Positions 9,731 to 57,548 of a DNA stretch of 64,000 bases are shown piece after piece. How positions within the stretch are numbered: position 1 is the first letter of the stretch; each line of letters opens with the position of its first letter. The notes under the pieces were generated by a model. The model was not told the origin of the DNA, did not search any database, and saw nothing but the letters and a program-made list of their open reading frames with translations. Source of the stretch: an uncultured Gammaproteobacteria bacterium (GTDB lineage: Bacteria; Patescibacteriota; Microgenomatia; Levybacterales; UBA12049); assembly GCA_964483115.1 (NCBI GenBank), contig CAYZZF010000003.1, forward strand, positions 2,772 to 66,771, read 5' to 3'. The position numbers and the translations under genes are program-made.

Positions 9731-10768
9731 ATGGAAGAAGAGTTAATCCAAATTAAGAATGCGGCAGTATCGTTAATTTTGGAAGCAAAAAATCAAGAAG
9801 AACTCGAAGAAATAAAGCTTCAGTTTCTGGGAAGAAGTGGAAAGCTGACACTTGCCATAAAAGAAATCCCTAAATTACCTATTGAGAAAAGGCCTGAAAT
9901 TGGAAAACTTGCAAATGAAGTTAAGAACACAATTGAGGAAACTTTAGAAAATCAAAAATCGAAAATCAAAAATCAAAAATTAGAAGCTGCAAAGATTGAG
10001 ATTGACAGGACAGAACCTGGGATAGAACCTGAAATAGGACACATTCATCCAATGTCCCAAGTCATTTATGAAGTTGTGGATATATTTAAAACTTTGGGAT
10101 TTCAAGCAGCAGACGGGCCCGAGATAGAAACTGATTACTACAATTTTGAAGTTTTAAATATCCCCAAGGATCACCCCGCACGAGATATCCAACAGACATT
10201 GTACTTAGACACAAGAAACAGTAAGGAAACGCCCGGAGAAATATTGCTTCGAACTCAGACGTCCAACATGCAAGCAAGAATCATGGAAAAAATTAAACCT
10301 CCATTTAGAGTTATAGTCCCAGGGAAGGTATTTAGATACGAGCAGGTAGATGTTTCTCACGGATTTGAGTTTCAACAATTTGAAGGATTCGCAGTTGATG
10401 AAAATATCAGATTAACAGATTTATTTGGAACTATCGAATATTTCTTTAAGAAATTCTTTGGTGAAAAAACTAAAGTCCGCTTTGTATGCCATAACTTTCC
10501 TTTTGTAGAGCCCGGGGCTGAAGCCTATATTAACTGTAATGCTTGTGGGGGAAAAGGCTGCGTCTTCTGTAAAAATTCCAGTTGGGTAGAGATATTAGGA
10601 GCAGGAATGATACATCCTAATGTTTTAAAAAGTGTTAATATTGATCCAAATAAATATCAAGGCTTTGCCTTTGGAGTTGGTTTGTCAAGACTTGCAACTT
10701 TAAAATATCAAATGGATGATTTACGGCTTCTGACAAACCCCGACTTAAGAATATTAAATCAGTTTTAA
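9731..10768 (+). CDS. pheS: Phenylalanyl-tRNA synthetase alpha subunit
   Basis: ILLRTQTSNMQAR, FRYEQVDVSHGFEFQQFEGFAVD, and class II motif 3. Confidence 0.85.
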   Translation: MEEELIQIKNAAVSLILEAKNQEELEEIKLQFLGRSGKLTLAIKEIPKLPIEKRPEIGKLANEVKNTIEETLENQKSKIKNQKLEAAKIEIDRTEPGIEPEIGHIHPMSQVIYEVVDIFKTLGFQAADGPEIETDYYNFEVLNIPKDHPARDIQQTLYLDTRNSKETPGEILLRTQTSNMQARIMEKIKPPFRVIVPGKVFRYEQVDVSHGFEFQQFEGFAVDENIRLTDLFGTIEYFFKKFFGEKTKVRFVCHNFPFVEPGAEAYINCNACGGKGCVFCKNSSWVEILGAGMIHPNVLKSVNIDPNKYQGFAFGVGLSRLATLKYQMDDLRLLTNPDLRILNQF

Positions 10769-10787
10769 TGAATATTAAATACTAAGT

Positions 10788-12683: not shown

Positions 12684-12687
12684 TCCT

Positions 12688-12742
12688 CACGTGCAATCGA
12701 GATACACCCCGAAGGTGAATTTTCGGAAGGTGTAGTTTCGTG
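12688..12742. repeat. Nested hairpin element containing ACACCCCGAAGGTG; likely a bidirectional terminator between convergent pheT and the PBP gene
   Basis: CACG...CGTG outer stem, TACACC...GGTGTA middle stem and CCGAA...TTCGG inner stem. Shares a 13-mer with 16394-16408 and 11030-11045. Confidence 0.45.
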
Positions 12743-16377: not shown

Positions 16378-16393
16378 CAAGTGTAAACGTAAC

Positions 16394-16408
16394 ACACCCC
16401 GAAGGTGT
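16394..16408. repeat. ACACC-CCGAA-GGTGT hairpin (REP-like), followed by GGTGTAAA/GGTGAA repeats
   Basis: Same 13-mer CACCCCGAAGGTG as at 12705-12717. Lies just downstream of the tyrS stop. Confidence 0.4.
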
Positions 16409-16440
16409 AAAGGTGAAGGTGTAAACCTGTAAACGAAATA

Positions 16441-16567: not shown

Positions 16568-18640
16568 ATGAATCTTAAAACTCCTATCCGTTTGGCAGGA
16601 AATATATTCACAAGATATGCAAACCGTCTTGAAAAACTTGGTATTAAAACCATAGATGATTTTCTCTATTATTTTCCATTTCGTTATGAAGATTATTCCG
16701 TCATTTCGAAAATCAGTCAGGTGCAAAGCGGGGAAGTGGTAACGATCCAGGGAGTCGTAGTTGATATTAAAAATGAATACACCAAAAAATGGAAAAAAAT
16801 TCAGAAAGCAAAGATTGCAGATGAAACAGGAGTAATCGACGTTATATGGTTTAATCAGCCATTTATTTTAAATATAATAAGAAAGAATGATAATGTATCT
16901 CTGTCTGGAAAAATAGGTTTGCATTTAAGTAAATTTGTTCTTGAATCTCCTGATTATGAAGTTATAAATGAACAGACACAAACAATCCATACTGGAAGAT
17001 TAATCCCAATCTATAGAGAAACCAACGGTATTTCGTCTAAATGGTTACGTCGCCAAATATATAAAATCATTAGGGAAAATAAACAAAATATACTCGAATA
17101 TCTTCCTGACTCAATTAAAAAAGATAATGATTTAATGATGTTAAGTGACGCAATTGAACAAATTCACTTTCCAAAATCATTAGAAGATGCTAAAAAAGCA
17201 AGATATCGACTAGCTTTCGATGAATTATTTATTCTCCAACTAACAGCGGCGAAAAGAAGATTTGAATGGAAGAAAAGCCTTACAACCCACCCCTTTTCTA
17301 TAGCAAGCTACAAAAAAAATATTGAGGATTTTTGGAAAAAGCTTCCCTTTGAACTAACAAATGCTCAAGAAAAGGCAGTTTCTGAAATTTTTAAAGATTT
17401 AGGCACAGAGAATCCAATGAACAGACTTTTGGAAGGAGACGTAGGAAGTGGAAAAACAGTCGTTGCAAGCATTGCTATGTATCTAGCTTTCTTAAATGGT
17501 TTCCAATCGGTTCTTATGGCACCAACTGAGATTCTTGCTCAGCAACATTTTAATACTATTTCGAATCTTTTATCTCCATTTAAAGTCAAAGTCAGCCTAA
17601 AAACAGGAAGTATTAAACATAAAGTATCAAGTATAAAGACCGAAAGTAAAAAAATACTCAATACTCAATACTCAATACTCAATACTAACATTTTAGTTGG
17701 GACTCATGCTGTACTTTCTGAAAAGATCAATTTTGAACGTTTGGGACTTGTTGTAATTGATGAACAACAGCGTTTTGGCGTAGAGCAACGGGCAATAATA
17801 AGAGAGAAAGGGGGAAATCCGCACTTTCTTACAATGACTGCAACTCCAATTCCCAGAACCGTTGCTTTAATTTTGTATGGAGACCTTGATCTTTCTTTTT
17901 TGGATGAAATGCCAAAAGGCAGAAAAAAAATTAAAACATGGCTTGTCCCTTCGGAAAAAAGAGATAGTGCCTATCGATGGCTCAAGTCTCAAATTTCAAC
18001 TTTCAAATCTCAGGCTTTTATCATTTGTCCTTTTATTGAAGAATCAGAAAGCATAACTACTGTTAAAGCCGCAACAAAAGAATACGAAAGACTAAAAAAG
18101 GAAATTTTTCCAAATCTCAAACTTGCTCTTCTTCATGGAAAGCTGAAGACCAAAGAGAAAGATTTAATATTGGAAGGTTTCAAAAATAGAAAAACTGACA
18201 TACTTGTCTCAACGCCTGTGGTTGAGGTAGGAATAGATATTCCTAACGCAACAATTATGATGATCGAGGCAGCAGAGCGTTTTGGACTTGCCCAGCTCCA
18301 TCAACTGCGAGGAAGGGTTGGTAGAAGAGAAAAACAATCATATTGTCTATTATTTACAGAGTCACAGCGTGAGAAAACAATTGAAAGGCTTAAAGCGATG
18401 GAAACAATGAGTATAGGCGTAGAACTTGCAGAACTTGATTTAAAACTTCGAGGACCAGGAGAAATATATGGCACAGCCCAACACGGGATTCCAATGCTTA
18501 AAATCGCATCATTTTCAGATATTGCTCTTATAGAAAAGACAAAAAGAGAAGCAAAAAAAATATTTTCAAACATTAAAAGCTATCCAAAACTTTTGGAAAA
18601 AATAGAAAAATCCACAACAAAACAAGTCTCCCCAGATTGA
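16568..18640 (+). CDS. recG: ATP-dependent DNA helicase RecG
   Basis: Wedge/OB domain. Helicase motifs GDVGSGKT and DEQQRFGV. C-terminal ...LHGKLKTKEKD...QLHQLRGRVGR. Confidence 0.85.
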   Translation: MNLKTPIRLAGNIFTRYANRLEKLGIKTIDDFLYYFPFRYEDYSVISKISQVQSGEVVTIQGVVVDIKNEYTKKWKKIQKAKIADETGVIDVIWFNQPFILNIIRKNDNVSLSGKIGLHLSKFVLESPDYEVINEQTQTIHTGRLIPIYRETNGISSKWLRRQIYKIIRENKQNILEYLPDSIKKDNDLMMLSDAIEQIHFPKSLEDAKKARYRLAFDELFILQLTAAKRRFEWKKSLTTHPFSIASYKKNIEDFWKKLPFELTNAQEKAVSEIFKDLGTENPMNRLLEGDVGSGKTVVASIAMYLAFLNGFQSVLMAPTEILAQQHFNTISNLLSPFKVKVSLKTGSIKHKVSSIKTESKKILNTQYSILNTNILVGTHAVLSEKINFERLGLVVIDEQQRFGVEQRAIIREKGGNPHFLTMTATPIPRTVALILYGDLDLSFLDEMPKGRKKIKTWLVPSEKRDSAYRWLKSQISTFKSQAFIICPFIEESESITTVKAATKEYERLKKEIFPNLKLALLHGKLKTKEKDLILEGFKNRKTDILVSTPVVEVGIDIPNATIMMIEAAERFGLAQLHQLRGRVGRREKQSYCLLFTESQREKTIERLKAMETMSIGVELAELDLKLRGPGEIYGTAQHGIPMLKIASFSDIALIEKTKREAKKIFSNIKSYPKLLEKIEKSTTKQVSPD

Positions 18641-22099: not shown

Positions 22100-22632
22100 A
22101 ATATATCGGTAGTTACAGAAAGAGAGTAAGTGCCATTTTGCACATTAGCCGTGAGAGTATCAACTGTAATATCTTTGATTATTTGTTTTTTTTTTGCCAT
22201 ATCTATTAAATTGTTTAAGAAATTGTTTATCAAAAGCAGAGAGTTTGAAGAAACAACAAGTGTAACTTTACTTTTGTCAATAGATATAGAATTTATTGAA
22301 ACTCCGTCTGGCACCTTCTTAAGAAAAGTGTTTATTGTGATATCATAATTTTGCCTATTCTTTATAATTTCTGAAATACCATCTAGTCTATCTTTTATAA
22401 TAGCCAGTTTTGCTTGTTTCTGTTGTAAAAATGACATATTATAAAACAGTTCATTTTCCTTCTTCTTAATTCGGGCTGGGGACAGTTGCTCACTTAAAAA
22501 AAATAAGAGAATTGATATGACTAAAACAGCTGTAAGAGAACTTAGCGCTAATGTCTTCAGAATTTTTAGCGTTCCTAAAGATTTTTCAGTATCGATCTGG
22601 GCAGGCGGAAGAAGATTTATATCATTTTTCAT
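22096..22632 (-). CDS. pilN: Type IV pilus assembly protein PilN
   Basis: N-terminal INLLP motif followed by a TM helix, the PilN hallmark. Confidence 0.6.
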   Translation of the reverse strand: MKNDINLLPPAQIDTEKSLGTLKILKTLALSSLTAVLVISILLFFLSEQLSPARIKKKENELFYNMSFLQQKQAKLAIIKDRLDGISEIIKNRQNYDITINTFLKKVPDGVSINSISIDKSKVTLVVSSNSLLLINNFLNNLIDMAKKKQIIKDITVDTLTANVQNGTYSLSVTTDIL

Positions 22633-23662
22633 AATCCCTCATCGCCAGTCCTACGGCGATAGTATACTCTGGTGCGTCATCAAGAATCTCTCTAGGTAAT
22701 TCTTGATTTCTAAGTATTTTCCATGGATTAGCAATAACAGTCTCGATATTTACTTTATTTGTAAAAAACAAATCTATTCCAGGAAGTTTTGCTGTTCCTC
22801 CCGAAAGGATTATCTGTCTTATCGGTTTATCTCCTTTATATTTTTCAGAATAAAATGCCAGTGCTTTCCTAACCTCGGCTAATATAGAATCAAGGATTGG
22901 CTCTGTAGCCTTTCCAATTTTCCCTCCAAATATCCCCGTAGAAACTCCGTAACTTTTTTTATATTCTTCGGCCTGTTTTTGCGTAAGTCCAAAATCTGCT
23001 TCAATCGCTCGGTTAATGGCAGAACCTCCGACAGGAATTGAATAGATAAAAATCATAACATTATCCCTTACAATCGCAAGTGCCGTACTGGCTGATCCAA
23101 TATTGACAATAAGAGACGTAGGAAAATTGTCACTTGTGACCAATGCTCTTATAGTTGCCAATATCTGAGTTTCTATTGCATTTATTGTAAGTCCGGCCAT
23201 CGACAAAATTTTCTGATATTTATTTATAAGAAGGGTTGGTGACCCAACTATCAAAATCTGCATTTTTTCTTCCATTATGGCTTGCGGCGGTCTTTTTAGC
23301 ACACTCCAAGCTAGTTTAACTGATGACAGAGGTACAGGAATATGTCGTTCAGCTTCCCAATAGATAGCAGAGGAAAGTTCTTTATCGGATAATACCGGCA
23401 TTTCTATAACATTTGTATATACCTGGTTCTCCGCAAGAGCAATGTTTACATACTTTGTGGTAATCTTGGCTTCATCAATACTTCTTACCAAAGCTCTGGC
23501 CATTTCTTCTTCATCAAGAGGAGACTCTGATAACATCCCTTTTGGAGGAGCTGGGGTGATAAGAGATGCATCAAGTATAAATTCCTCCTTTTGATAAGAT
23601 AACCAAACAATTTTGATAGTTGATACACCGATATCAAGGCCGAAAGGTCTTTTATTCATCAT
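22622..23662 (-). CDS. pilM: Type IV pilus assembly protein PilM (actin-like ATPase fold)
   Basis: GLDIGVSTIKIV and an FtsA/PilM-like fold. Adjacent to pilN. Confidence 0.7.
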   Translation of the reverse strand: MMNKRPFGLDIGVSTIKIVWLSYQKEEFILDASLITPAPPKGMLSESPLDEEEMARALVRSIDEAKITTKYVNIALAENQVYTNVIEMPVLSDKELSSAIYWEAERHIPVPLSSVKLAWSVLKRPPQAIMEEKMQILIVGSPTLLINKYQKILSMAGLTINAIETQILATIRALVTSDNFPTSLIVNIGSASTALAIVRDNVMIFIYSIPVGGSAINRAIEADFGLTQKQAEEYKKSYGVSTGIFGGKIGKATEPILDSILAEVRKALAFYSEKYKGDKPIRQIILSGGTAKLPGIDLFFTNKVNIETVIANPWKILRNQELPREILDDAPEYTIAVGLAMRDYEK

Positions 23663-23667: not shown

Positions 23668-24498
23668 TTATCTTGGCGAAAAAATTCCGTATGTAAAATA
23701 CTCGGCAGGAAGCTGAGGAAAGCTTTGAAAAACATTAACCTTACGCGTTACAATATTGCCTGATGTACCAGATGTCCCGATTGATGAAATCATAGAACCC
23801 TGAGAATAAAAAGCTGTAGTAGTACTGCTTGCTCCTATATAAGTATTCGTGTATATAGGAATAACCCTTGCAATTAAACCCGAAGTGACGCTAATTGTTG
23901 CTGAATAGGGGAAACTTTTGCCACCTGCAGTTCCGCTTCCCGAAGTTGAGCTAAAACGATTAGAATTTGCTCTTGTAATGCAGGGATCATATGCATACCG
24001 GGTAAGTGTCTGCGAGGTTTGTGTTCCTGAGATAACTATTATCTCCAAAGCTGCAGGCACATTATTAGGATTATTACAATTGCCCGAAGTATTTCCCCAA
24101 TAGATAGTTAAATTACTTGGACCACTAGGGGACCATGGTTTAGTATAATCGGGGTTATTGCCATTATGCGGAACAAGCCACAAGTCAACGCCTTCATCTT
24201 GCGGTACGAGATTGCCTCCATTTAGTAAGATGCTTGTGCCGCCAACCGCAGCTATATCTGTAGTGTAGCTCGTATTATTAGAGAATGTGCTGCTGAGTCC
24301 TGTACTTGATTGAAGTTGTCGTTGAATTCCAGCTTCGGCAGCAGACAGAGCTTTTGCGGAATCTGCCTCCTCTGTTGATATTTTAAGATTAGTTATACTT
24401 CTGGAGATTACCGATAAACCAACTGTAAGAGAAACAACCATTATCAAAACAACTATCAGAAGGATTTGTCCTTTTTGCTTATATTTCATACTATCCAT
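23668..24498 (-). CDS. PilX-like minor pilin / pilus-associated protein
   Basis: N-terminal GQILLIVVLIMVVSLTVGLSVISRS...EEADSAKALSAAEAGI resembles PilX_N. Ser/Thr/Gly-rich C-terminus. Confidence 0.4.
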   Translation of the reverse strand: MDSMKYKQKGQILLIVVLIMVVSLTVGLSVISRSITNLKISTEEADSAKALSAAEAGIQRQLQSSTGLSSTFSNNTSYTTDIAAVGGTSILLNGGNLVPQDEGVDLWLVPHNGNNPDYTKPWSPSGPSNLTIYWGNTSGNCNNPNNVPAALEIIVISGTQTSQTLTRYAYDPCITRANSNRFSSTSGSGTAGGKSFPYSATISVTSGLIARVIPIYTNTYIGASSTTTAFYSQGSMISSIGTSGTSGNIVTRKVNVFQSFPQLPAEYFTYGIFSPR

Positions 24499-24572
24499 TA
24501 TAATTTTAGCGTATCAATCATTTTTACTGGTGTCAACCCCGTTTGATGAGTGCAATCCCATGTAGCGTCGGG

Positions 24573-26078
24573 TTAAAAATTTCTCATAGTCACTGACGTT
24601 TGAAATGGGATAGATGCTTTTTTCTCGAAAAAATTACTTGAGGTCTTACTAGAAAGAGTAAAATTTATCCCAATTATTGGAGGGGAAACAATATTATCTT
24701 GAGAACAAGTAAAAAAACAGGAATCAACAGAAACAGAATTATTAGTATCTACGAGATTGGCTCCGTTTGATGCAATTTGGCCATTGGGAGAACGCTGAGA
24801 AGAATCTAAGCAGGAAAAGATTGTAGTTCCTCTGTCAAAAGAAGTTATTTTTACATAATTGTATTGAATTAGAGGCGGGGTTGGAGTAGGGGATGGAGCT
24901 GGAGTAGGAGATGGGGTTGGACCAGGCGTAAAAGTAGCGGTTGGTGTGGGTGTGGGGGCCGCAGGGTTTATTGAAACTCCTCCAATTGCCCAATAGCGAG
25001 AGAATGAAAATGTCCATGACATTGTTACAGAATCTGCTCCAGGTTTTGTACTAGAGGCTCCTAATTCAACGCTACTGGCTACCGTGTTCCATAATTGAGT
25101 TTGACCAGAACCAACAGTAGGAGAACTAGAACTGTAAGCTGCAAGATTATCCTCAACTACTGCTCCTGTTTTACTTACAACATTAACAGAGGGATTTTTA
25201 CTATAACCAGAGGCAGTTGTATAGTTACTAAGAGGGGCTGTTTGATCAACTCCTGACCAGCTTGTAGCTCCTCCCACAGGATAGACGTAAGTTGAAAAGT
25301 TTACTTTAATTGTAGCGGTGCCGCTTGTGGGATTAATAAGATACCACATTTCTGATTGGTCTTGATTGATATCCTTTATCCCACCTATTCTTGTAAGAGA
25401 TGCTGTTCCATAAGTTATACTAGTTATGGAAGTGGAACTTCCATAAAAGGAGACACTAACCAAGAGAAGCCTATTGCTGTTCGAACCTACTGTATGGTTC
25501 CAGCTAAGAGATTTTGCATATGAACCAGCCGTATAAGATTTTGCATCAAGAGTTGGAGAAGCAGCTGCAACAGCTTCTTTTATTGGCGATTTTTCAAACT
25601 TAGGAATTAAGTCTTCTAACTTTGAAAATAAACTTGACGTTTTTTCTTTGCCTAGGCTGACAAATCCCTGAATAAACTCAGCAATTTTCGAAAAAAAACT
25701 TTCTTTTTTGCGAATGATAATAGGTGAATAAGAAAGAGGATAACTGCAATCTGCAGTGTAGTTAACTCCGTCAGTGCTTACTCCGTCAAAGTTTTGGGCA
25801 TATTGTATCATCTTTCCCATTTGTGAAATCGCACTATTACCATTTCTTCTAACAATATCTATAGTATTTGTTTTACTTGTTCCACGAAGAGAGGAAACTA
25901 AAATAGCTGAGACAACCGCACCTACAGTAAGGATGACAAACATCACAACCAAAAGCTCGATTAAGGTGAATCCTGCTCGCCGCCGGCTCGAGTTTAAAGT
26001 TAAAAGTTTAAAGTTAAAAGTTAATAAAGAAGGGGGACTAAAATTTTTAATTTTGGATTTTAATTTTGAGTTTTGCAT
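24573..26078 (-). CDS. Large type IV pilin-like protein (501 aa) with a Pro/Thr-rich tract
   Basis: Prepilin cleavage/methylation motif RRRAG|FTLIELLVVM. PAAPTPTPTATFTPGPTPSPTPAPSPTPTPP linker. The leader peptide is encoded by AT-rich heptamer repeats. Confidence 0.6.
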   Translation of the reverse strand: MQNSKLKSKIKNFSPPSLLTFNFKLLTLNSSRRRAGFTLIELLVVMFVILTVGAVVSAILVSSLRGTSKTNTIDIVRRNGNSAISQMGKMIQYAQNFDGVSTDGVNYTADCSYPLSYSPIIIRKKESFFSKIAEFIQGFVSLGKEKTSSLFSKLEDLIPKFEKSPIKEAVAAASPTLDAKSYTAGSYAKSLSWNHTVGSNSNRLLLVSVSFYGSSTSITSITYGTASLTRIGGIKDINQDQSEMWYLINPTSGTATIKVNFSTYVYPVGGATSWSGVDQTAPLSNYTTASGYSKNPSVNVVSKTGAVVEDNLAAYSSSSPTVGSGQTQLWNTVASSVELGASSTKPGADSVTMSWTFSFSRYWAIGGVSINPAAPTPTPTATFTPGPTPSPTPAPSPTPTPPLIQYNYVKITSFDRGTTIFSCLDSSQRSPNGQIASNGANLVDTNNSVSVDSCFFTCSQDNIVSPPIIGINFTLSSKTSSNFFEKKASIPFQTSVTMRNF

Positions 26079-26093
26079 TTTAAATTTTGAATT

Positions 26094-26573
26094 TTATGGC
26101 GCTGTCACACTTGAATTATTGTTAACACAAGAAACAATTTTTATCTGGTGACAAAATGGATTTGAAACGCTTGTGCATTTGGTGTCTGACCAAGACACCA
26201 ATGCTGTTATTAATGCCCCAGTACTTGAACAGTCCATAGATTTTTGTGAAATATCAATTTCTCTTACGAAAAGATTATCAATATTTGTACCGCAGCTAAT
26301 TCCTTTCTGAGTAAGGTCTCTATTTTTATCAAGACAATAATAAGTATTATCGTAGGTTGAAAAATCTGCCCAATTAGATTGAGCAAGTTTTCTAATTATC
26401 TCTATTCCTTCCTGAGCGTATTGTGTAGCCACGTTTTGATTCTTGCTAAATTGGACATTGGTGAGAGATGACATGACAATAATTACTATTGCAGCAATTA
26501 TAACTGTGGCTGTCCCCAATGCTATCAAAACCTCAATCAATGTCTGTCCAATTTGTGAGCTGTTCTTTTTCAT
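26094..26573 (-). CDS. Type IV pilin/pseudopilin
   Basis: G|QTLIEVLIALGTATVIIAAI is a class III signal peptide. Confidence 0.6.
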   Translation of the reverse strand: MKKNSSQIGQTLIEVLIALGTATVIIAAIVIIVMSSLTNVQFSKNQNVATQYAQEGIEIIRKLAQSNWADFSTYDNTYYCLDKNRDLTQKGISCGTNIDNLFVREIDISQKSMDCSSTGALITALVSWSDTKCTSVSNPFCHQIKIVSCVNNNSSVTAP

Positions 26574-27064
26574 CGAATATTCCCTGATGGATCAACTGTT
26601 ATATTGCTTGTATAACCATACCCTGTTACGCTAATTGTAATACCTGAAGATGGAGAAACTCCACCGGTAATAACATTAAAAAAAATAGTCGTTGGTAGTT
26701 GTATTGGATTAGTTATGCTAACATTTGGAGGAAGATTTACGGTTGAAGCTGGATATTTACCTATTGAGGAAACAGCATCTAGTTCATAACTGGTAGATGA
26801 TAATATAACTACTTGATATCCATTAAGCACGCAGGTGGGTACAGACGCGCACTGACTTGGTTTAACTTGATTTGAAGCACGGGATTTTGCAAGACTTAAC
26901 ATAGTTGCTAAATTATTTGCAGCAGAATTAACAGTTTGTAAACGATTGTAATTTACAAATGAGGCAATTCCGACAATTGATAAAATCGCAATAACAGAAA
27001 TGACAACGATCAGTTCGATAAAAGTAAATCCTTCTGAAGACTTTTTATGGATTAGTAAGAACAT
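26570..27064 (-). CDS. Type IV pilin-like protein
   Basis: EG|FTFIELIVVISVIAIL. The listed ORF was shortened to an internal Met to limit overlap with the upstream pilin. Confidence 0.5.
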   Translation of the reverse strand: MFLLIHKKSSEGFTFIELIVVISVIAILSIVGIASFVNYNRLQTVNSAANNLATMLSLAKSRASNQVKPSQCASVPTCVLNGYQVVILSSTSYELDAVSSIGKYPASTVNLPPNVSITNPIQLPTTIFFNVITGGVSPSSGITISVTGYGYTSNITVDPSGNIR

Positions 27065-27527
27065 AATAATAGTTACTATTGCATCCTGTTCCGCTTCCGT
27101 CCGGAGACGTAGTTGTGCCTTGAGAATCATTGGTGTTTTCAAGACACGCGCCTAGAATATAAGTTATGCCATCATTGCTTGAGTAATAGTACATACCGCT
27201 ATTATAATAAGAACTTCCGTTGGGATCACAAGGAATTTTTTGCATATAAGTGGTGGGTGGACTTCCGGCAGTCATAGCAGATCCACAGGCAGGTAGCGAT
27301 GATGGATAGCTTCCCTCATCCGCTCTGTAAAATTCCAGTGCTGACTGTATCTGACGAAGGTCAGACTTTCTTTGACTATCTCTTGCTCTCTGCCGAACGC
27401 CAATAAAATTTACAAAAAGAATACTCGCCAAAACTCCGATAATTGCAATAACAACCAAAAGCTCAATTAGAGTGAATCCTCCGTTGAGATTTGAGATTTG
27501 AGATTTGAGATTTGAGATTTTCTTCAT
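27045..27527 (-). CDS. Type IV pilin
   Basis: GG|FTLIELLVVIAIIGVLA, then RARDSQRKSDLRQIQSALEFY. The leader carries (TGAGATT)x4 heptamer repeats. Confidence 0.7.
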   Translation of the reverse strand: MKKISNLKSQISNLNGGFTLIELLVVIAIIGVLASILFVNFIGVRQRARDSQRKSDLRQIQSALEFYRADEGSYPSSLPACGSAMTAGSPPTTYMQKIPCDPNGSSYYNSGMYYYSSNDGITYILGACLENTNDSQGTTTSPDGSGTGCNSNYYYVLTNP

Positions 27528-28138
27528 GGTGTTACATTTGAACTTGTTGCTCCATAATTACAAATATAACTCGAGGAGGATCCACAGTAAACACCGACTG
27601 GAACATTAGTACATTGTGCTCCTTGATTGCACGCCTGAGGATCTTGTGCGCCTCGCTCTAAAGATGTATAAAGATAGTATGATTGCGCTCCTGTTGTAGG
27701 AGAGGAGTAATACACGTAATTTTGTGAAGAAAGTGGATCATTGGGAACAGAATTTATGTATGGACTAAAATTAGTGGTAGAAAGAGTTGATCCCCAAACT
27801 ACACAATTTCCATCCAACCTTTTTATTCTAAAATCAGTAGCTGTACACTGAGGAGGATAATACCCAAAATCGTTGTAGTATGTCTCTAATGCCCTTTGAA
27901 TTTGCGCCAGATCTGATTTTCGCTGAGCATCTCTTGCTTTCATCAATTGCCCCACTGGGTTTATAATTGTAAACAAAAAGACTGCCATAATCCCCAGTAT
28001 CGCTATTACCAATAACAGCTCAACTAGGGTAAAACCATAAAAATTATTTTTTCTGAAAGAAAGTAGCTTAAAAAGGTTCCAAGAGCCAAAAATGGGCCGA
28101 AAGGAATTGTTGCGATTTTTAACCTCTTTTTCTTCCAC
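27524..28138 (-). CDS. Type IV pilin
   Basis: YG|FTLVELLLVIAILGIMA, then ARDAQRKSDLAQIQRALETYY. Long leader. Overlaps the 3' end of pilD, so the true start may be internal or non-ATG. Confidence 0.6.
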   Translation of the reverse strand: MEEKEVKNRNNSFRPIFGSWNLFKLLSFRKNNFYGFTLVELLLVIAILGIMAVFLFTIINPVGQLMKARDAQRKSDLAQIQRALETYYNDFGYYPPQCTATDFRIKRLDGNCVVWGSTLSTTNFSPYINSVPNDPLSSQNYVYYSSPTTGAQSYYLYTSLERGAQDPQACNQGAQCTNVPVGVYCGSSSSYICNYGATSSNVTP

Positions 28139-28818
28139 ATAATTAGTATGAGGCCAGCAACTGCTCCTGTCAAGAAGGCTATATATAAAGCTATGATAAT
28201 CTTTGGAAATCCTAGCAGCAATCCCAAAAAAAAGACAAGTTTAACATCTCCTAAACCCATCCCTCTACCTTTGGTAATAAAGTATAAAAATAAAAAGAAT
28301 AGAAACACACCAATTGAGGAGACAATATTAGATATCAAGATATTAGAATGTAAGAATATTAAGTAAAGAAAGGAGATCGCAATTGCTGGGTAAACAATTT
28401 TATCTGGGATAATGCCATATTTAAGATCGGTAAAAAAAATTACTATCAAAGAGGAAACAATAAACCAATAATACAGGGCATCAATCATATACTTGATAGT
28501 TAACACTTGATACCCAATACTTATTTGGGGTAATAGATAAACAGCCGATATAAATAAAACTGCCGTTATTAATTCGACAATGGGATAATAAACGGAGATA
28601 GAAGAGTGACAAAGCCTACATTTACCTCTTAGAAGAAAAAATGAAAGAATGGGAATCATATCAAACCAGACAAGTTTTTTTCTGCACTTGTCACAATACG
28701 ATCTTCCTTTAAAAGGGGACTCATCATTCGGAAGACGATCAATAAGAACATTTAAAAAGCTCCCTACTGCAAGACCTAGAATGAATGATAAAGAAATGAA
28801 TGATAAAGAAAACAACAC
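28024..28818 (-). CDS. pilD: Prepilin peptidase (A24 family)
   Basis: N-terminal CxxC...CxxC zinc motif (CDKCRKK...CRLCH) and polytopic peptidase_A24 helices. Confidence 0.75.
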   Translation of the reverse strand: MLFSLSFISLSFILGLAVGSFLNVLIDRLPNDESPFKGRSYCDKCRKKLVWFDMIPILSFFLLRGKCRLCHSSISVYYPIVELITAVLFISAVYLLPQISIGYQVLTIKYMIDALYYWFIVSSLIVIFFTDLKYGIIPDKIVYPAIAISFLYLIFLHSNILISNIVSSIGVFLFFLFLYFITKGRGMGLGDVKLVFFLGLLLGFPKIIIALYIAFLTGAVAGLILIMWKKKRLKIATIPFGPFLALGTFLSYFLSEKIIFMVLP

Positions 28819-28918
28819 TATTTATAGAATAGCATAAAACAATACAGTCAAAACAAAAACAGCTTAAATAATATGAATACTATAATATGAGTACTATAGT
28901 GTACTATTATATTTTTGA

Positions 28919-28977
28919 ATGTAGCGAGTCTGTTTCACCTTAGTCTGTTTCACCTTCCAAGTGAAATAGCTTCGCTA
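28919..28977. repeat. REP-like structured repeat left of the RAYT gene
   Basis: GTAGCGAG...CTTCGCTAC outer stem enclosing two GTCTGTTTCACCTT copies and a CACCTTCCAAGTGAAA hairpin. Confidence 0.5.
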
Positions 28978-28998: not shown

Positions 28999-29664
28999 TT
29001 ACTCTAAAACTAGATGTTTTATTTCTTCTAATCTTCTTCCGTAATCAATATTATCCAAAAGAAATTCCTTATAATCATCTAATGTTTTGAATTGCTCAAG
29101 GATTGTATCAGCTAGAACCAAACCAGATCTTCCTGCTAAAAAATCTGGTAATGATGACCATGAATAAGATAATAAATCCTGCTCATCAACGACGGTTGAA
29201 ACAACTGGGTTCAAATGAATATACCGGGAAACATGCAATAATTGCTCATTGGATTCTATATGAGAGGATTTAAATACACCTTGAAATACAGGTCCAATTC
29301 TATTGTATTTAGTATTGAAATATTTAGTATAGCTATTCGTAAATTTACTAAGAAATGTAGAGATTCCTTTGTCTTTAGTTTGTCTTAGAAGAAAATGGAA
29401 ATGATTCGGCATAAAAACAAAAGAAATTATTTCAACAAATTTTTCGCTTTTTTCCATATCCGAAATTATTCGATTGCGTTCTTCTTGAGAAAACTTCTTA
29501 AATCTCGAAAGCCTCACAGGCGGAGAAATAAAACGGTAATAGGATAGTGTTAGAAGAGCTTGTTTATAATCATTTTTGTTTAAAAATGTCGGTTGACGCG
29601 CAACTCCACGATTAAAAATATGATAATATTCTTCATTTACTAAAGGGGTAGATCTGTAAGACAC
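28999..29664 (-). mobile_element. IS200/IS605-family Y1 (HuH) transposase, REP-associated tyrosine transposase (RAYT)-like
   Basis: YHIFNRGV, HuH motif MPNHFHFLL, catalytic-Tyr region SRYIHLNPV, and C-terminal YSWSS. Matches the TnpA_REP/RAYT pattern. Flanked by REP-like hairpins. Confidence 0.7.
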
Positions 29665-29710: not shown

Positions 29711-29752
29711 GCTGTTTCACCTTCCAGGTGTAATAAATCAGGTGTAATAAAT
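29711..29752. repeat. REP-like repeat right of the RAYT gene
   Basis: GCTGTTTCACCTTCCAGGTG has a CACC-TTCCA-GGTG hairpin and is a near-copy of the left-flank core. Followed by a CAGGTGTAATAAAT direct repeat. Confidence 0.5.
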
Positions 29753-29939: not shown

Positions 29940-30557
29940 TTATGGAGTAAAAGGCCCTTCCGACATAGTTCCGCTAACAGGATTAGTTCCTGCACCCACA
30001 GCGCTCATGCATGCTACCTGCACTAAACCTTTTGATGAATCAAAGTAAACTATACCTTGGCTTTTCGAACAAGGTGTCCCTGTACCGGTTGCTTTTAATA
30101 ATTCGTTGTTTGATTCAACTGTGGTCCAAATTGCAAATTTAGTAGGAGTAGCACTATCAACTGCATAGCAGATATTTACTTGAACATCACTTGTTAAGGT
30201 TCCACCAGCACAAGGTGTCCCCCCTGTTATGTCTGGCAAGGATACGACATTAGTTATATCCTTTGAAGCCGTTAAAACATTTTGCCAAGTACCTGGAGTA
30301 GCGGTACCGTCAACTACAGGAATAACCGAATTGTTTGAAGTTACATAATTAGACATACTCTTTCCCAGACCTTCCACAGCAGAAATTCTATTTGCGTCTC
30401 TTCCTCGAGCTAATTGTTCCACAGGGTTAATAGCTAGAAGGACAATTGCTGCAAGAACCCCTATGACCGCGATAACCACTAGAAGTTCTATCAACGTAAA
30501 ACCTTTTTTTGAAGTTAAAAGTAAAAGATTAAATAATTTCTTAAAAGAACTTTTCAT
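29940..30557 (-). CDS. Type IV pilin (candidate major pilin)
   Basis: KKG|FTLIELLVVIAVIGVLAAIV. Has its own near-consensus promoter. Lies adjacent to pilC/T/B. Confidence 0.7.
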   Translation of the reverse strand: MKSSFKKLFNLLLLTSKKGFTLIELLVVIAVIGVLAAIVLLAINPVEQLARGRDANRISAVEGLGKSMSNYVTSNNSVIPVVDGTATPGTWQNVLTASKDITNVVSLPDITGGTPCAGGTLTSDVQVNICYAVDSATPTKFAIWTTVESNNELLKATGTGTPCSKSQGIVYFDSSKGLVQVACMSAVGAGTNPVSGTMSEGPFTP

Positions 30558-30646: not shown

Positions 30647-31852
30647 TTAGCGAATCGACGATATCAAACTATAAATTGGGACAATAACTGATATGAGCAA
30701 AAATGCAACCCCAACACCTAAAACCACTATTATAATAGGTTCAAGAGCAGTTGTTAATGTTTTAATTATTTGATCCGTCTCTCTTTCAAAATATTCAGAG
30801 GCTTTCATTAATGTTTCATCAAGTTTTCCTGTTTCTTCTCCGATTTTTATTAATTGAATAAGAAGAGGGGGGAAAATAGGATATGCGGATATTGCTTCTC
30901 CTATTTTTACTCCGTTCTCTACCTTCTTTGCTATATCCTTCACTGCATCTTTATAATGTATATTTCCTAAAGTATCAGCAGTTTCAAGAAGAGAATCCAC
31001 AACTAAACTGCCACTTCCCACCAAAAGACCAAAAGTTCTTGAAAATTCAGTAAGTATCAATTTTTTGTTAAGGTTACCAAAGACTGGTAATTTTAATAAA
31101 AAATTATCTATCAAAAGCTGTCCAGCTTCTGTCTTATGCCATCTCCTGTAAAAAAAGATAGACAATATAACAATTCCTAAAAGTAAAGGCCAAAAAACTA
31201 TAGTAAATCTTGAAATACCAATAATAATCTGGGTGGGCAATGGGATCGAAACGTTAAGACTTTTATAAAGAGTTGAAAGCTGAGGAATAACAACAGTCAT
31301 CATAATAACCACAACCCCAACCATTAAAATTACAACTATGATTGGGTAAGTTAAAGCCCCTTTAACTGTATTTCTTAATTTCTCCTGCTTTTCTAAATTA
31401 TCTGCAAGTCTTGCAAGAGCTTTATCCAAAAGCCCTGCTGATTCCGCGGATTTGATGATAGCCACATAAATATTAGAAAAAACATTTGGATATTTAGCAA
31501 TTGCCGAAGATAAATTTTTTCCTTCCTCTATATCAGTAATTATGCTATTTACTACCTCAAGCATTGTCTGATTTTCTAGTTGTTCCTTAATTATTTCTAA
31601 AGAACGAATCAATGTAAGCCCTGAAGCAAGCATCGATGAAAGTTGCCGTGTAAAAACGACCACATCCAAATGTCCAATTTTATTATAAAATGGCAGCAGT
31701 TTTAAAAAAGAACTATCGCTTTGTCTTGCTATACGAATAGGGAATAGGTTTTTGCTTCGTAAATATGAAGCTGCTTCGCTAACATCGTTTGCATCAATTA
31801 ATCCCTGGATTATTCTATTATCTGTTGTTACTGCCCTATATTTAAGTTTCAT
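30647..31852 (-). CDS. pilC: Type IV pilus platform protein PilC (GspF family)
   Basis: Two T2SS_F repeats, three TM helices, and PilC-like conserved loops. Confidence 0.75.
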   Translation of the reverse strand: MKLKYRAVTTDNRIIQGLIDANDVSEAASYLRSKNLFPIRIARQSDSSFLKLLPFYNKIGHLDVVVFTRQLSSMLASGLTLIRSLEIIKEQLENQTMLEVVNSIITDIEEGKNLSSAIAKYPNVFSNIYVAIIKSAESAGLLDKALARLADNLEKQEKLRNTVKGALTYPIIVVILMVGVVVIMMTVVIPQLSTLYKSLNVSIPLPTQIIIGISRFTIVFWPLLLGIVILSIFFYRRWHKTEAGQLLIDNFLLKLPVFGNLNKKLILTEFSRTFGLLVGSGSLVVDSLLETADTLGNIHYKDAVKDIAKKVENGVKIGEAISAYPIFPPLLIQLIKIGEETGKLDETLMKASEYFERETDQIIKTLTTALEPIIIVVLGVGVAFLLISVIVPIYSLISSIR

Positions 31853-31855
31853 AAC

Positions 31856-32920
31856 TTATCCTATTAATCTAAATAATTCTTCTTGCCTTACGGCGTAGCT
31901 TTTTGCTGTTTCTAGGCTGATTGAGCCTGAAAGGACTAGAGCAGCCAAAGAGGACTCAAGCGGAATCATTCCCATCTCTTGAGAGTTCTGTATTATTGAA
32001 TCTATAAGATGTGTCTTTCCTTCTCTTATATTACTTGCAACTGCAGGTGTACCAATAAGAACTTCAGCAGCCGGTATCCTCCCACCGTTAATTTGCGGCA
32101 ATAGGCGCTGGGAGACAATCCCTTTTAGGGTTGCGGCAAGCTGAACTTTTATTTGATTTTGTTGAGTTGCGGAAAATGCATCGATGATTCTGTCTATGCT
32201 TTGTGCGGCTGAATTTGTATGAAGAGTTGAGAAAACTAGATGACCGGTCTCTGCAATTGTAATAGCCGATGCAATCGTCTCAGGATCTCTCATCTCTCCA
32301 ACCAAAACTACATCGGGATCTTCTCTAAGAGCCGACCGGAGGGCTGCCGCCCAAGAATTACTATCAAGGCCCATTTCTCGTTGCGATATAATACTTTTTT
32401 CTTTAGGATAAACATATTCAATGGGATCCTCAATTGCTAAAATATGCAAAGACTTATTTAAATTTATCTCATTTATAATCGCCGCAAGGGTGGTCGATTT
32501 ACCATGACCAGTAGGTCCTGTAACCAAAATAAAGCCTTGTTTTAAAGCTGAAAAATTATGGAGAATTTTTGGTAAATGGAGCTCTTCTATTGTCCTTATC
32601 TTTGGCTCAAGAAATCTAAATTCAGCACTTACGTATCCCTTTTGGTAATAAACATTTACTCTAAATCTACCTAGTTCTTCGCCTTCTCTTCCAAAACCAA
32701 AAGAAAAATCAAGTTCCTTATCGGCAAGAAACCGATCTCTCTGGTATTGATTGAGAAGTGAAAAAACCATTGTTGAAACTACATCAGCTGTCAATACAGA
32801 ATAATTCGAGAGATAAGTTAAGACCCCGTCTATACGAAGCGCTGGTGGAATACCAGGGATTAAATGCAGATCCGACGCCTTATTCTCAACTGTTAAACGT
32901 AATAAGTCCTGAATATCCAT
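31856..32920 (-). CDS. pilT: Twitching-motility retraction ATPase PilT
   Basis: Walker A GPTGHGKSTT, Asp box, Walker B, His box. About 350 aa, which is PilT-sized. Confidence 0.8.
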   Translation of the reverse strand: MDIQDLLRLTVENKASDLHLIPGIPPALRIDGVLTYLSNYSVLTADVVSTMVFSLLNQYQRDRFLADKELDFSFGFGREGEELGRFRVNVYYQKGYVSAEFRFLEPKIRTIEELHLPKILHNFSALKQGFILVTGPTGHGKSTTLAAIINEINLNKSLHILAIEDPIEYVYPKEKSIISQREMGLDSNSWAAALRSALREDPDVVLVGEMRDPETIASAITIAETGHLVFSTLHTNSAAQSIDRIIDAFSATQQNQIKVQLAATLKGIVSQRLLPQINGGRIPAAEVLIGTPAVASNIREGKTHLIDSIIQNSQEMGMIPLESSLAALVLSGSISLETAKSYAVRQEELFRLIG

Positions 32921-32997
32921 AGACTCCCTTCGGTCATAATAAACAAATACTTCAAATATTAAAATATTTGTTTATGGTAGTATTGGTATTATTTTCA

Positions 32998-35557: not shown

Positions 35558-36829
35558 ATGATAATTAAAATTAAAAAACTGTTTTATTTCCCATTGGCTT
35601 ATTATTTTAGATTCTTTGCAAAAATTAGACTAAACCGATGGAAACCAAGAGTTATTATAATTACCGGCTCGAGTGGAAAAACAACCCTTTTAAATCTTGT
35701 GGAATCTCAAATAGAGAGTAGAGCAAAATACAGCCACCATACCAATAGCAGCTATGGAATTCCATTTAATATTTTGGGACTTGAAAGGAGAACTCTATCT
35801 TTAAGCGAATGGCCCTTTCTGTTTCTGTTTGCTCCTATAAAAATATTTACTCCGGTGCCGAAGAAAAAATTTTACATTGTTGAGGCTGATTGCGATAGGC
35901 CGAATGAAGGCAGGTTTCTAACAGCTCTGCTTAAACCCGAAGTCACCCTTTGGACCAATTCGACAAGAAGTCATAGCATGAATTTTGACCCGCAGGTAAA
36001 AAATGGAAAATTTAAGAGTGTCGAAAAAGCTATAGGATATGAATATGGTTATTTTATAGAAAATACATCTAAATTAGTGGTAACAAACGGCGACTCTGTA
36101 ATTATCAAAGGAGAACTTTCAAGAACTAAAGCAAAAGTAGTGTCTATCACAATAAAAAATCTTCAAAATTATAAGATATCACATGAAGGCACCGAATTCA
36201 AAAGCCAAGGAAAGATTTTTAGATTTAGACAACTTTTGCCAAAAGAAAATTTCTACACCTTAGAAATGTGTTTAAATCTTTTATCTTATCTGAGAATCCC
36301 GTCAGATGAATCATTCAGTAAATTTATTCTTCCCCCAGGAAGAAGTAGTTTGCTAAGTGGCATTAAAAATACCAAAATTATCGATAGCAGTTATAATGCC
36401 AATCTCGACTCTATGGCTGCAATTTTGGACATGTTTGATAAAATTCCAGCTGAAAAAAAATGGGCGATACTCGGAGACATGCTTGAGCAAGGACAAGAAG
36501 AAAAAGAAGAACATGAAAAACTGGCAAAGATAATATCCAGAATGCTATTTGACAGAATTATACTTATAGGTCCGCGGGTTTCCCGATACACTTATCCGGA
36601 ATTAAAAAAAATACTCAATAGAAAAGTCAAGATAGAAAAATTCGAAAAACCAAAAGAAGTACTTAATTATCTAAGATCAAATATCAAAGGCGGAGAGTTC
36701 TTACTCTTCAAAGGCGCACGATTTCTTGAGGGAGTAATAGAAAATTTACTTGTCGATAAAAAAGATGTCTTAAAACTGGCGAGGCGCGAAGAAGCCTGGG
36801 AGAAAAGAAGAAAGTCTTGGGGATTATGA
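35558..36829 (+). CDS. murF: Mur ligase family protein, MurF-like (UDP-MurNAc-tripeptide--D-Ala-D-Ala ligase)
   Basis: ATP-binding P-loop VIIITGSSGKTT. IDSSYNANLDSM matches the MurF DDSYNANP motif. Confidence 0.55.
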   Translation: MIIKIKKLFYFPLAYYFRFFAKIRLNRWKPRVIIITGSSGKTTLLNLVESQIESRAKYSHHTNSSYGIPFNILGLERRTLSLSEWPFLFLFAPIKIFTPVPKKKFYIVEADCDRPNEGRFLTALLKPEVTLWTNSTRSHSMNFDPQVKNGKFKSVEKAIGYEYGYFIENTSKLVVTNGDSVIIKGELSRTKAKVVSITIKNLQNYKISHEGTEFKSQGKIFRFRQLLPKENFYTLEMCLNLLSYLRIPSDESFSKFILPPGRSSLLSGIKNTKIIDSSYNANLDSMAAILDMFDKIPAEKKWAILGDMLEQGQEEKEEHEKLAKIISRMLFDRIILIGPRVSRYTYPELKKILNRKVKIEKFEKPKEVLNYLRSNIKGGEFLLFKGARFLEGVIENLLVDKKDVLKLARREEAWEKRRKSWGL

Positions 36830-37569
36830 ACAAAACGGCAAATGGCAAACGGCAAATGACAAATGACAAACTGAAAGTTTTTATTCTACACGGTTGGGCT
36901 TACTCAAAAGAAAAATGGAACCCTTTCCTATCTCTTTTAAAGTCGGGGGGCTTAAACCCCTATTTGCTTTCAATTCCAGGACTTACAGAAAAAAACGATA
37001 AAGTTTGGAATATAGATAATTATGTCAAGTGGCTTTATAAAATTTTAGAAAAAGAGAAAGGGAAGATTGTTCTTTTAGGACACTCAAATGGAGGGAGAAT
37101 AGCTCTTGCCTTTACGATAAAATATCCCCAAAAACTATCAAAACTAATTCTAATTGATAGCGCCGGAGTTTATCACAATGATTTACCTATAAAAATAAAA
37201 CGCGGCATATTTAAAATAACGGCTAAAGTTGGCAAGAAAATCTTTCCTCTTGAGCAGGCAAGAAATTTATTGTATGCAATAGCACGAGAAAATGACTACA
37301 AAAATGCTGACCCAATCATGAAAAGGACTATGATTAATCTTATTAACTCTGATAAGAGTCTTACTATTGATAAAATAAAAGTCTCTACTATTATAATATG
37401 GGGAGAAATAGATAAAATAATTCCTGTGTCTGATGCAAAAATATTAAACCAAAAAATAGTCAATAGTAAATTATATATAATTAATAACTCCAGACATTCA
37501 CCTCAATTTACTCATTCAGAAGAGGTGGCAGACATAATAATTCAGCAATTAAATCGTGCAGTAATTTAG
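36817..37569 (+). CDS. Alpha/beta-fold hydrolase
   Basis: Nucleophile elbow GHSNGG. The N-terminus (MNKTANGKRQMTNDK) is encoded by GGCAAAT/GACAAAT heptamer repeats. Confidence 0.55.
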   Translation: MGIMNKTANGKRQMTNDKLKVFILHGWAYSKEKWNPFLSLLKSGGLNPYLLSIPGLTEKNDKVWNIDNYVKWLYKILEKEKGKIVLLGHSNGGRIALAFTIKYPQKLSKLILIDSAGVYHNDLPIKIKRGIFKITAKVGKKIFPLEQARNLLYAIARENDYKNADPIMKRTMINLINSDKSLTIDKIKVSTIIIWGEIDKIIPVSDAKILNQKIVNSKLYIINNSRHSPQFTHSEEVADIIIQQLNRAVI

Positions 37570-42892: not shown

Positions 42893-43408
42893 ATGACTAT
42901 TAAAAATCTAAAAGTTGGTAAAAATCCGCCGGAGGAAATAAATGTTTTTATAGAAATACCGCAGGGTGTTTCGGTTAAATATGAACTTGATAAAAATTCA
43001 GGCGTTATTTTTGTGGACAGATTTCTTTATACCGAAATGGAATATCCTTTTAATTACGGGTTTATTCCAAATACTTTGTATGACGATGGAGATCCGGTTG
43101 ATGTTCTTGTGCTTGCGAGCAAACCCGTCGCGCCCGGCGTGGTTATTCCATCCCATCCAATAGGAATGCTTGAGATGGAAGATGAAGCAGGAACTGATAA
43201 CAAAATAATCGCAGTGCCGCTTGCAAAGGTTGATCCGAAATTTAAAGATTATAACGATATCTCAGATATCCCAGAAAAAACAAAAAATGAAATTAAATAT
43301 TTTTTTGAGAATTACAAAAAAACCGAGCCGGGTAAGTGGGTAAGACTTAAAGACTGGAAAGGGAAAAAAGAAGCATTAGAAGAGATCAGACGGTCAATTA
43401 AACCCTGA
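42893..43408 (+). CDS. ppa: Inorganic pyrophosphatase (family I)
   Basis: [10 protein letters not shown] and the EIPQG...YELDK signature. Confidence 0.85.
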
Positions 43409-56762: not shown

Positions 56763-57548
56763 TTAATATTTCAACCTTAAAAGAAAATCACTAAGGTCTT
56801 TTGGGAGAGAAGATTTGATCTGTAAAGTTTTATTATTAACTGGATGGACAAAAGAGATTTCTGAGGCGTGGAGGAAAAGACGGGACAAAAGTTTTCTGTC
56901 CTTCCTTGCGACTTTTCGACCCGCATAAAGATTATCTGCAAAAACAGGATGGCCAAAATATTTAAGATGTACTCTTATCTGATGAGTTCTTCCCGTCTGC
57001 GGATATAGTTCGATCAAACTCAAAGCCTCTTTTTCCTCTCCTGATACATAATATTTAATATTTAATATTTTATACATTGTCGTCGCTTCTCTACCACCTG
57101 CAACAATCCCAAATCTCTTTCTATTCCAAGGTGTTCTTCCAACCGGCACATCTATTTCTCCTTTAGAAGGCGTAACTTTTCCATGAACCAAAGCGATATA
57201 AGTCTTTTTAACCTTCCTCTCTTTGAATTGTTTTTGAAGATTCAAAAAACAATCGAGGGTTTTGCCAATAAGAAGAACTCCCGAAGTCTCCTTATCAAGT
57301 CTATGAACAATCCCAGCCCTGCTGGTAAATTCTAAATCTAAAGCACCAAATTCCAATTTTTTTTTATCATTTGAATTTTGTAATTTATTTGTGATTTGTG
57401 ATTTGTGATTTGTGATTTCAAGATACTCTTCTACCCAGTCCTGTACTGTTTCCTCCTCTTTCGTGGTTTCCGAACGATTTACCGTAACCCCAGACGGTTT
57501 ATCTATAACCAAAAGGCATTCGTCCTCATATATTATTTTCATATCCAT
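56763..57548 (-). CDS. RluA-family pseudouridine synthase (RluD-like, no S4 domain) with an in-frame repeat-derived insertion
   Basis: Catalytic GIVHRLDKETSGVLL and HQIRVHL. A 30-aa insertion (EITNHKSQITNKLQNSNDKKKLEFGALDLEF) is encoded by the heptamer-repeat element at 57331-57418. Confidence 0.7.
   Translation of the reverse strand: MDMKIIYEDECLLVIDKPSGVTVNRSETTKEEETVQDWVEEYLEITNHKSQITNKLQNSNDKKKLEFGALDLEFTSRAGIVHRLDKETSGVLLIGKTLDCFLNLQKQFKERKVKKTYIALVHGKVTPSKGEIDVPVGRTPWNRKRFGIVAGGREATTMYKILNIKYYVSGEEKEALSLIELYPQTGRTHQIRVHLKYFGHPVFADNLYAGRKVARKDRKLLSRLFLHASEISFVHPVNNKTLQIKSSLPKDLSDFLLRLKY

Follow-up and report, generated by a model that had tools for sequence, protein, structure and literature searches.

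Bacterial contingency loci switch at a high rate, about 1e-2 to 1e-5 per generation. In E. coli K1, the 5' coding region of neuO contains AAGACTC repeats, with tracts of 3-53 units and the gene OFF in 65.6% of complete genomes (PMC13001214). In Neisseria, the opa genes contain CTCTT pentamer repeats in the region coding for the leader peptide (PMC3745409). The opa tracts are built from a single fixed unit, are longer than the arrays reported here and switch at ~1e-3 per generation. In H. influenzae, ATCTTTC heptanucleotide repeats are present in the hmwA promoter (PMC8262952). In this case, the heptanucleotide repeat also controls an adhesin, and its unit resembles the CATCTTT unit found in one of the loci analysed here (L012); however, the hmwA tract is untranslated, lies between promoters, comprises 13-24 or more units and grades transcription.

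Heptanucleotide repeats are also known as families dispersed in genomes, and the cyanobacterial STRR are one such family of short repeats. TAACTGA repeats are present in Beggiatoaceae, Cyanobacteria and Bacteroidetes just upstream of start codons, and those of Beggiatoaceae have been proposed to be the binding site of a regulator that reads a 7-nt periodicity (PMC4679880). Geobacter metallireducens has sets of 4-5 heptamers (PMC2700814). For these three families, a function is at most proposed to be regulatory. We found no report of heptanucleotide repeats, phase variation or repeat-encoded leaders in Patescibacteria or the candidate phyla radiation in the literature searched. In the candidate phyla radiation, type IV pili are considered key to host attachment and DNA uptake.

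Based on the analysis of a 64-kb stretch of Levybacteria DNA (the window; 35% GC) and of related loci, we lean towards a model in which a lineage-wide class of heptanucleotide microsatellites is retained in cleavable pilin leaders, where it has an inherent capacity for reversible ON/OFF changes. The focal array of the window is in a type IV pilus operon, in which all genes are on the minus strand. The operon comprises PilM (22622-23662), six or seven pilin-like genes (23668-28138 and 29940-30557), the prepilin peptidase PilD (28024..28818; Pfam A24_N_bact, 1.1e-30; Peptidase_A24, 2.1e-16) as well as PilC, PilT and PilB (30647-34731). The focal gene codes for a 160-aa type IV pilin or T2SS-G-like prepilin (27045..27527, minus strand; Pfam N_methyl, 3e-8; T2SSG, 4.7e-6), and the protein qualifies as a class III prepilin by its N-terminal methylation motif (G at -1, F at +1, E at +5), its hydrophobic helix and the Pfam matches as well as by the presence of PilD within the locus. 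Its N-terminus reads MKKISNLKSQISNLNGG|FTLIELLVV (leader, then mature protein), and PilD would be the enzyme that cuts off the repeat-encoded leader. The ATG (27527-27525) overlaps the stop codon of the upstream pilin gene (ATGA), and the G(-1) codon is at 27479-27477. An exact-protein look-up of the focal pilin returned no record; the protein is identical to one NCBI protein (P0001, on a contig of 75,970 bp), and the remaining homologues are at most 70% identical. These homologues (52-70% identity) come from Patescibacteria, in most cases from Candidatus Levybacteria.

The focal gene contains, downstream of its ATG and ahead of the G|FTLIEL cleavage site, a perfect (AAATCTC)x5.3 array of 37 nt with five full units (27484-27520 on the coding minus strand; plus-strand unit TTGAGAT; period 7 with 100% matches in TRF). 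This array codes for leader residues 3-15, KISNLKSQISNLN. The array is translated, since the stretch from its end to the G(-1) codon contains no ATG, GTG or TTG. In silico, an intact pilin requires 2, 5 or 8 units, and 1, 3, 4, 6, 7 or 9 units result in a stop at aa 10-30. Thus, a unit not divisible by 3 is located between the start and the functional part of the protein; in silico, the product is lost when the array changes by one unit and is regained when this change is reversed. An earlier interpretation made from the letters of the window (the sequence-only reading) had given the leader of 27045..27527 correctly, as translation confirms, and had rightly anticipated that gain or loss of one unit shifts the reading frame of the focal pilin; the array that it described as (TGAGATT)x4 is real, while its copy number is five full units rather than four.

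The focal array shares with neuO a heptanucleotide unit, full-length translation that depends on the frame and a translated 7-residue repeat. With opa it shares a repeat that is not a multiple of 3 in the cleaved leader of a surface protein, a reading frame set by the number of units, and paralogs with their own tracts. Opa and NeuO are the closest systems in working principle. However, neuO is a single phage-borne gene, whereas the arrays in Levybacteria are a lineage-wide feature of a gene family. The Levybacteria arrays also differ from the opa tracts in having 7-nt units that vary by gene, ~5 copies and a consensus state that is nearly always ON, and the Levybacteria leader is a class III (PilD) signal, while the opa leader is a Sec signal.

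The focal array belongs to a class of arrays with period 7. With a score of at least 14, eight period-7 arrays are present in the window versus 0.01 expected from 100 first-order Markov simulations, and other periods from 4 to 12 are represented by 0-1 arrays each. Four perfect arrays with at least three copies have period 7 and 0-2 have any other period; overall, the 64-kb window contains 8-11 arrays. Similarly, in 36 related Levybacteria loci (517 kb; arrays detected by TRF, at least three copies), there are 89 period-7 arrays versus 1-6 for each other period. The median copy number is 4.6, and among 96 arrays, 77 have 4-6 copies and only six have more than six. These 96 arrays are built from ~40 different canonical units, the commonest of which is AAATTTC (12 arrays), and are located at the N-terminal end of genes (50), between genes (28), internally (15) or C-terminally (3). 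AAATTTC was considered as a slippery heptamer for -1 frameshifting; this idea was abandoned, as the majority of the units do not match the pattern X XXY YYZ.

At the genomic level, the arrays are closest to the TAACTGA repeats and the Geobacter heptamers. As in these families and in STRR, many loci per genome have about 2-6 units of 7 nt, both between and within genes and often at 5' ends. However, each of the three families has one unit and is mostly intergenic, whereas no unit is common to all Levybacteria loci; rather, each array has its own unit and translated prepilin leaders are where the arrays are concentrated. In a scan of JGI metagenomes for (AAATCTC)3, we identified 125 arrays on contigs with 29-70% GC, most of them with 3.4-5 copies and a tail to 15, and no prepilin motif is present beside any of them, arguing that AAATCTC is a generic bacterial microsatellite. 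One JGI contig (L074, 42-582) has an array of arrays, in which four units ~170 nt apart each consist of a conserved GC-rich block followed by (ATCTCAA)4.3-4.9.

We consider the probability that the focal array results from misassembly or is a low-complexity run arisen by chance to be negligible. In favor of an error, it could be argued that two Logan contigs (from SRR5161805 and SRR5161795), which are 99.96-99.99% identical to the window and ungapped, both terminate within the focal array (27492 and 27513). However, a perfect period-7 run of 37 nt contains a repeated 30-mer, and a k=31 graph should, therefore, branch where these contigs end. Because this branching would occur even in a clonal population, the contig ends are silent on heterogeneity, and we rejected them as a sign of it. 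Moreover, only 0.01 such arrays are expected per window, the 37-nt tract is far shorter than the reads and the k of MAG assemblers, the ortholog in another species also has five units, and the architecture is repeated in dozens of relatives. Assembly collapse was likewise rejected as the cause of the ~5-unit ceiling because the tracts are of unequal length (32, 34 and 37 nt) and well below the k of the assemblers. Since the Logan contigs are ungapped, the arrays at 17608-17686, 25991-26095, 36833 and 38760 have the same copy number in three assemblies.

The arrays are strongly enriched in prepilin leaders. In the window and related loci, 40 of 155 prepilin cleavage motifs have an array at most 160 nt upstream of G(-1); 31 of these arrays have an in-frame start upstream, in eight the start is inside ATG-containing units, and one is without an in-frame start. 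Arrays are present at the 5' end of 37 of 147 pilin-like ORFs versus 3 of 504 other ORFs (OR 56, P 1e-22); the pilin counts are not independent of each other, since paralogs of the same genome have unit families in common (L012, L013, L027, L028/29, L030). One of the three array-bearing non-pilin ORFs codes for a GspK-like pseudopilin. In the typical layout, the ATG is followed by 1-3 codons, an array of ~33 nt, 2-3 codons and G|F; most commonly, the ATG is at -42 to -48 and the array at about -40 to -6, followed by two to three codons (e.g. RKG) and F(+1). The units of leader arrays vary by gene and include AAATCTC, AATTTCA, CATCTTT, ATCTCTC, AATTTTC, TCTTACA, ATCCTAC, AAATGGC and others. Translated heptamers can be recognised in many of the leaders of 120 homologous proteins (ISNLKSQ, NSKFKIQ, IVNRQSS, ELRIKN), and leader lengths peak at 10, 16-17 and 23-24 aa, i.e. 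in 7-residue steps that correspond to three units. In two public assemblies, scaffold gaps or masked runs of N directly adjoin leader arrays (L051, ~1927-1973; L015, upstream of 5127), which can mimic truncated pilin genes. One candidate OFF allele, the N-terminally truncated 140-aa protein P0134, was rejected because its truncation is a scaffold gap of Ns.

In the model that we favor, short arrays (~4-6 units, ~30-40 nt, varied units) would arise and turn over by gain and loss of units, probably by replication slippage or unequal exchange, and would survive where the protein tolerates them. The prepilin leader is an ideal site since PilD removes it. A stop-free heptamer array codes for one 7-residue repeat whichever of the three frames is read, and units rich in A code for polar residues, with much K, N and S. 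With the leader cleaved, the peptide independent of the frame and its residues polar, a gain or loss of three units (7 aa) should, therefore, do no harm. By contrast, changes of one or two units cause a frameshift and abolish the pilin, while the reverse change restores it. Each array-bearing pilin thus has a built-in, reversible ON/OFF mutation. This putative ON/OFF capacity is latent, and the consensus state is almost always ON.

Comparisons among relatives are informative about turnover. In a cluster of pilins with at least 90% identity, the leaders read MIKKIIKNCKVKNLNCRKG or MIKKLIKNCRQG, which differ by an in-frame indel of 7 aa (21 nt) flanked by AAATTGT direct repeats. Other pilin pairs that are at least 90% identical have unlike arrays, (AWGAATT)6 versus (AAATTNN)5. 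The syntenic ortholog of the focal pilin (L062; 61% identity) also has five units, which alternate as ABABA (AATATCA/AATCTCA), while the window has five identical units; here, copy number is maintained and the units are homogenised independently. ABABA patterns are common in other arrays. In L012, a Levybacteria MAG, a second pilin gene (JACPLF010000001.1, 10485-10565) has a perfect (ATCTCTC)4.7 array and is out of frame with its Shine-Dalgarno sequence and ATG by exactly one unit. In silico, one additional unit or two fewer units restore MKVERLKIKKTISHLSSLISHLSSRKG|FTLIEL and a normal prepilin of 365 or 358 aa; a single-base change in a nearby A7 run is an alternative repair that also restores the frame. 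Upstream in L012, a stretch that starts with AAATGAA AAATGAA adds a second out-of-frame ATG, with a TGA stop four codons further. For annotation, it follows that seemingly frameshifted pilin genes with arrays may be OFF alleles rather than pseudogenes.

The same data bear on the alternative that the arrays are contingency loci, i.e. selected high-frequency slipped-strand switches of individual pilins that would give rise to combinatorial pilus compositions for host attachment or phage evasion, as for Opa and NeuO. Should the arrays switch, Patescibacteria would gain their first described contingency loci. The location of the array between the ATG and the cleavage site with an ON state only at 2, 5 and 8 units, the strong enrichment in pilins, which are surface structures, and the precedents of Opa (PMC3745409) and NeuO (PMC13001214) speak for this explanation. 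So do several perfect arrays, which imply ongoing homogenisation, the in-frame polymorphism of three units together with the quantised leader lengths, and the OFF allele in L012 that is one unit from ON. By contrast, 39 of the 40 leader arrays are in frame (1/40 OFF), versus 34% ON for NeuO, and long and widely ranging tracts such as the 3-53 units of neuO were not found, most arrays having 4-6 units. Moreover, P0132 has a perfect (AAATTCA)4.7 leader array that recurs unchanged in at least 24 contigs from many different samples, with two SNPs and no indel in 10 aligned loci; because this population is clonal, its invariance is a weak test. The other arrays in the window are identical in three assemblies, the breaks in the Logan contigs are explained by the k=31 graph and provide no evidence of heterogeneity, and like arrays are present in the essential PheS. 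Taken together, we consider a dedicated contingency function somewhat unlikely. Differences in gene length among L052-L061 were rejected as variation because they reflect start choices of the gene caller, the DNA being clonal with 2 SNPs in 2.5 kb. A query with a 45-aa leader against the protein database gave only two matches and no copy-number distribution.

The sequence-only reading had proposed a phase-variation switch in what it called the classic arrangement. The frame effect, the 21-nt indel, the quantised leader lengths and one OFF allele are in line with a switch; the 39 of 40 arrays in frame, the 4-6 units and the invariant P0132 array are not, and the term classic is an overstatement because the proven heptanucleotide switches have long, variable tracts and many OFF genomes. 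The comparison of relatives that it had suggested brought out the 21-nt indel, the leaders quantised by 7 aa and the one-unit OFF allele in L012. On the other hand, it had regarded the same count in divergent relatives as evidence against a switch, and the five units in L062 at 61% identity come close to this.

A further alternative is that the arrays function at the level of the sequence, with pilin genes having an RNA or DNA element at their 5' end for which the peptide and frame are incidental. For instance, translation could initiate in an unstructured region poor in G, or a regulator could bind by recognising the 7-nt periodicity. Constant position and length with varying unit sequence are compatible with such elements, as are the sharing of unit families among paralogs of one genome, the maintenance of AT-rich arrays in a genome with 60.7% GC, and arrays that lie in the 5' UTR upstream of a short conventional leader (L006, 9511/10627). 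TAACTGA upstream of start codons (PMC4679880) and the heptamer sets of Geobacter (PMC2700814) are precedents. In most arrays of the window, the coding-strand unit lacks G; however, avoidance of TAG and TGA in all three frames explains this absence. The ~40 units have no motif in common, which makes a single binding factor unlikely, and we rejected a common protein-binding motif because the arrays share no sequence. Finally, arrays are also present deep within PheS, RecG and RluA. Thus, we regard an explanation purely at the sequence level as quite improbable.

Arrays in prepilin leaders are not confined to Levybacteria. On a contig with 60.7% GC labelled Deltaproteobacteria (L038), AT-rich arrays are present in four pseudopilin leaders (10380-12200), with the units AAAATGC, AAATTCA, AATTCAA and ATCTCAA in addition to the GC-rich AACTCGG; one of these leaders reads MKKISNLKSQIS and resembles the window pilin. 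A planctomycete-like prepilin (P0156) also carries an array (...NLKSQISNPKSEISNL...RRG|FTLVEM). These two cases hint at positive selection for arrays in such leaders. Tolerance alone does not obviously account for the contrast between pilins and the 5' ends of other genes (25% versus 0.6%). The strength of the enrichment in pilins together with AT-rich arrays in a GC-rich genome keeps alive a selected role, either contingency switching or a function at the RNA or DNA level. In its strongest form, the arrays would be a selected, conserved leader module of prepilins and pseudopilins that recurs across phyla (Levybacteria/Patescibacteria, the deltaproteobacterial T2SS-like operon with 60.7% GC and the planctomycete-like prepilin) and gives each pilin paralog its own reversible ON/OFF switch or, alternatively, serves a recognition system with 7-nt periodicity. 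We consider this form unlikely; if the arrays were such switches, ultra-small episymbiotic bacteria would vary the composition of their pili stochastically.

Our favored model, retention of a lineage-wide microsatellite class where proteins tolerate it, is also supported by arrays in three housekeeping genes. In the window, PheS contains AAAATCA x4.7 in frame (9948..9980, plus strand; Pfam Phe_tRNA-synt_N and tRNA-synt_2d), and the encoded peptide, ENQKSKIKNQKL, falls after the N-terminal domain and before the catalytic core of this essential protein. RecG contains AAGTATN x4.4 followed by a perfect AATACTC x4.9 array (17608..17686, plus strand, in frame; Pfam RecG_wedge/DEAD/Helicase_C), and these arrays fall between LKTGS and ILVGTHA. 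In four Levybacteria species, RecG has arrays with different units at this one loop, from LxTGS to VGTHA (in the relatives L010, 18575-18614; L014, 16802-16843; L031, 18920-18951); thus, the position of the array is conserved while its sequence is not. An RluA-type pseudouridine synthase gene contains a perfect AAATCAC x4.6 array in frame (57387..57418, minus strand; Pfam PseudoU_synth_2). The presence of the same arrays in frame in PheS, RecG and RluA argues that they are not a switch device specific to pilins. Even without switching, these features are of general relevance: Leaders change in steps of 7 residues, position and copy number are conserved while units turn over, and the period is strictly seven, also inside RecG, PheS and RluA.

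For two additional 5' arrays in the window, we also changed the copy number in silico. A 501-aa pilin-like protein (24573..26078, minus strand; Pfam N_methyl, 9.5e-7) has the 36-aa leader MQNSKLKSKIKNFSPPSLLTFNFKLLTLNSSRRRAG|FTLIEL, in which an array of (AACTTTT/AACTTTA)x4.9 in an ABABA pattern is located (25991..26024, minus strand; TRF, 88% matches at period 7 and 100% at period 14). The only in-frame start is lost upon any change of this array by +/-7 or +/-14 nt. The ATG (26078) is within a degenerate AAAATTN x7.9 array (26042..26095, minus strand; detected by TRF, as repeat families D1/D9 and by alignment), which is itself an incomplete copy of an AT-rich element dispersed in the window. 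The sequence-only reading had noted both features, the first as (GTTWAAA)x5, and we recovered both, the array as AACTTTW x4.9 on the minus strand. In the gene for an alpha/beta hydrolase (36817/36826..37569, plus strand; Pfam Abhydrolase_1, 4.9e-16), the N-terminus is encoded by (AAACGGC/AAATGGC/AAATGAC)x5.4 (36833..36870, plus strand), and three of five units contain an ATG. The array is thus present as described earlier; loss of one unit leaves no in-frame ATG, whereas gain of one unit keeps one.

The dispersed AT-rich element is ~120 nt long and has arms of degenerate heptamers (AAATTNC... / ...GNAATTT), which base-pair with each other in a long imperfect hairpin (DNA fold energy, -17.5 kcal/mol; z, -3.7). 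Copies are at 43405-43535 (plus strand), 63250-63390 (plus strand), 57320-57425 (minus strand) and 61795-61860, with the partial copy at 26038-26097. Copies are located directly upstream of gyrA and dnaB, and one is in frame inside the RluA-type gene, where, by alignment, the AAATCAC array forms the left arm of the element. The neighbor of the pilins that the sequence-only reading called a RAYT/REP insertion is a candidate only, an IS200/RAYT-like gene with a Y1_Tnp domain (28999..29664, minus strand; Pfam, E 4.8e-9) within the pilus operon; in addition to this domain, the window has the AT-rich element as a dispersed palindromic element. The Y1_Tnp gene is flanked by several perfect tandem duplications of 14-15 nt (28780-28956 and 29725-29752), and such a gene also adjoins the pilin operon in another species (L047, 1220-1627). 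Finally, a 44-nt element (…GTGTAATCGTGACCCACCCCGAAGGTGTAA…) that is GC-richer than its surroundings is present in three copies at gene boundaries in the window (11005-11048, 12679-12722 and 16369-16412).
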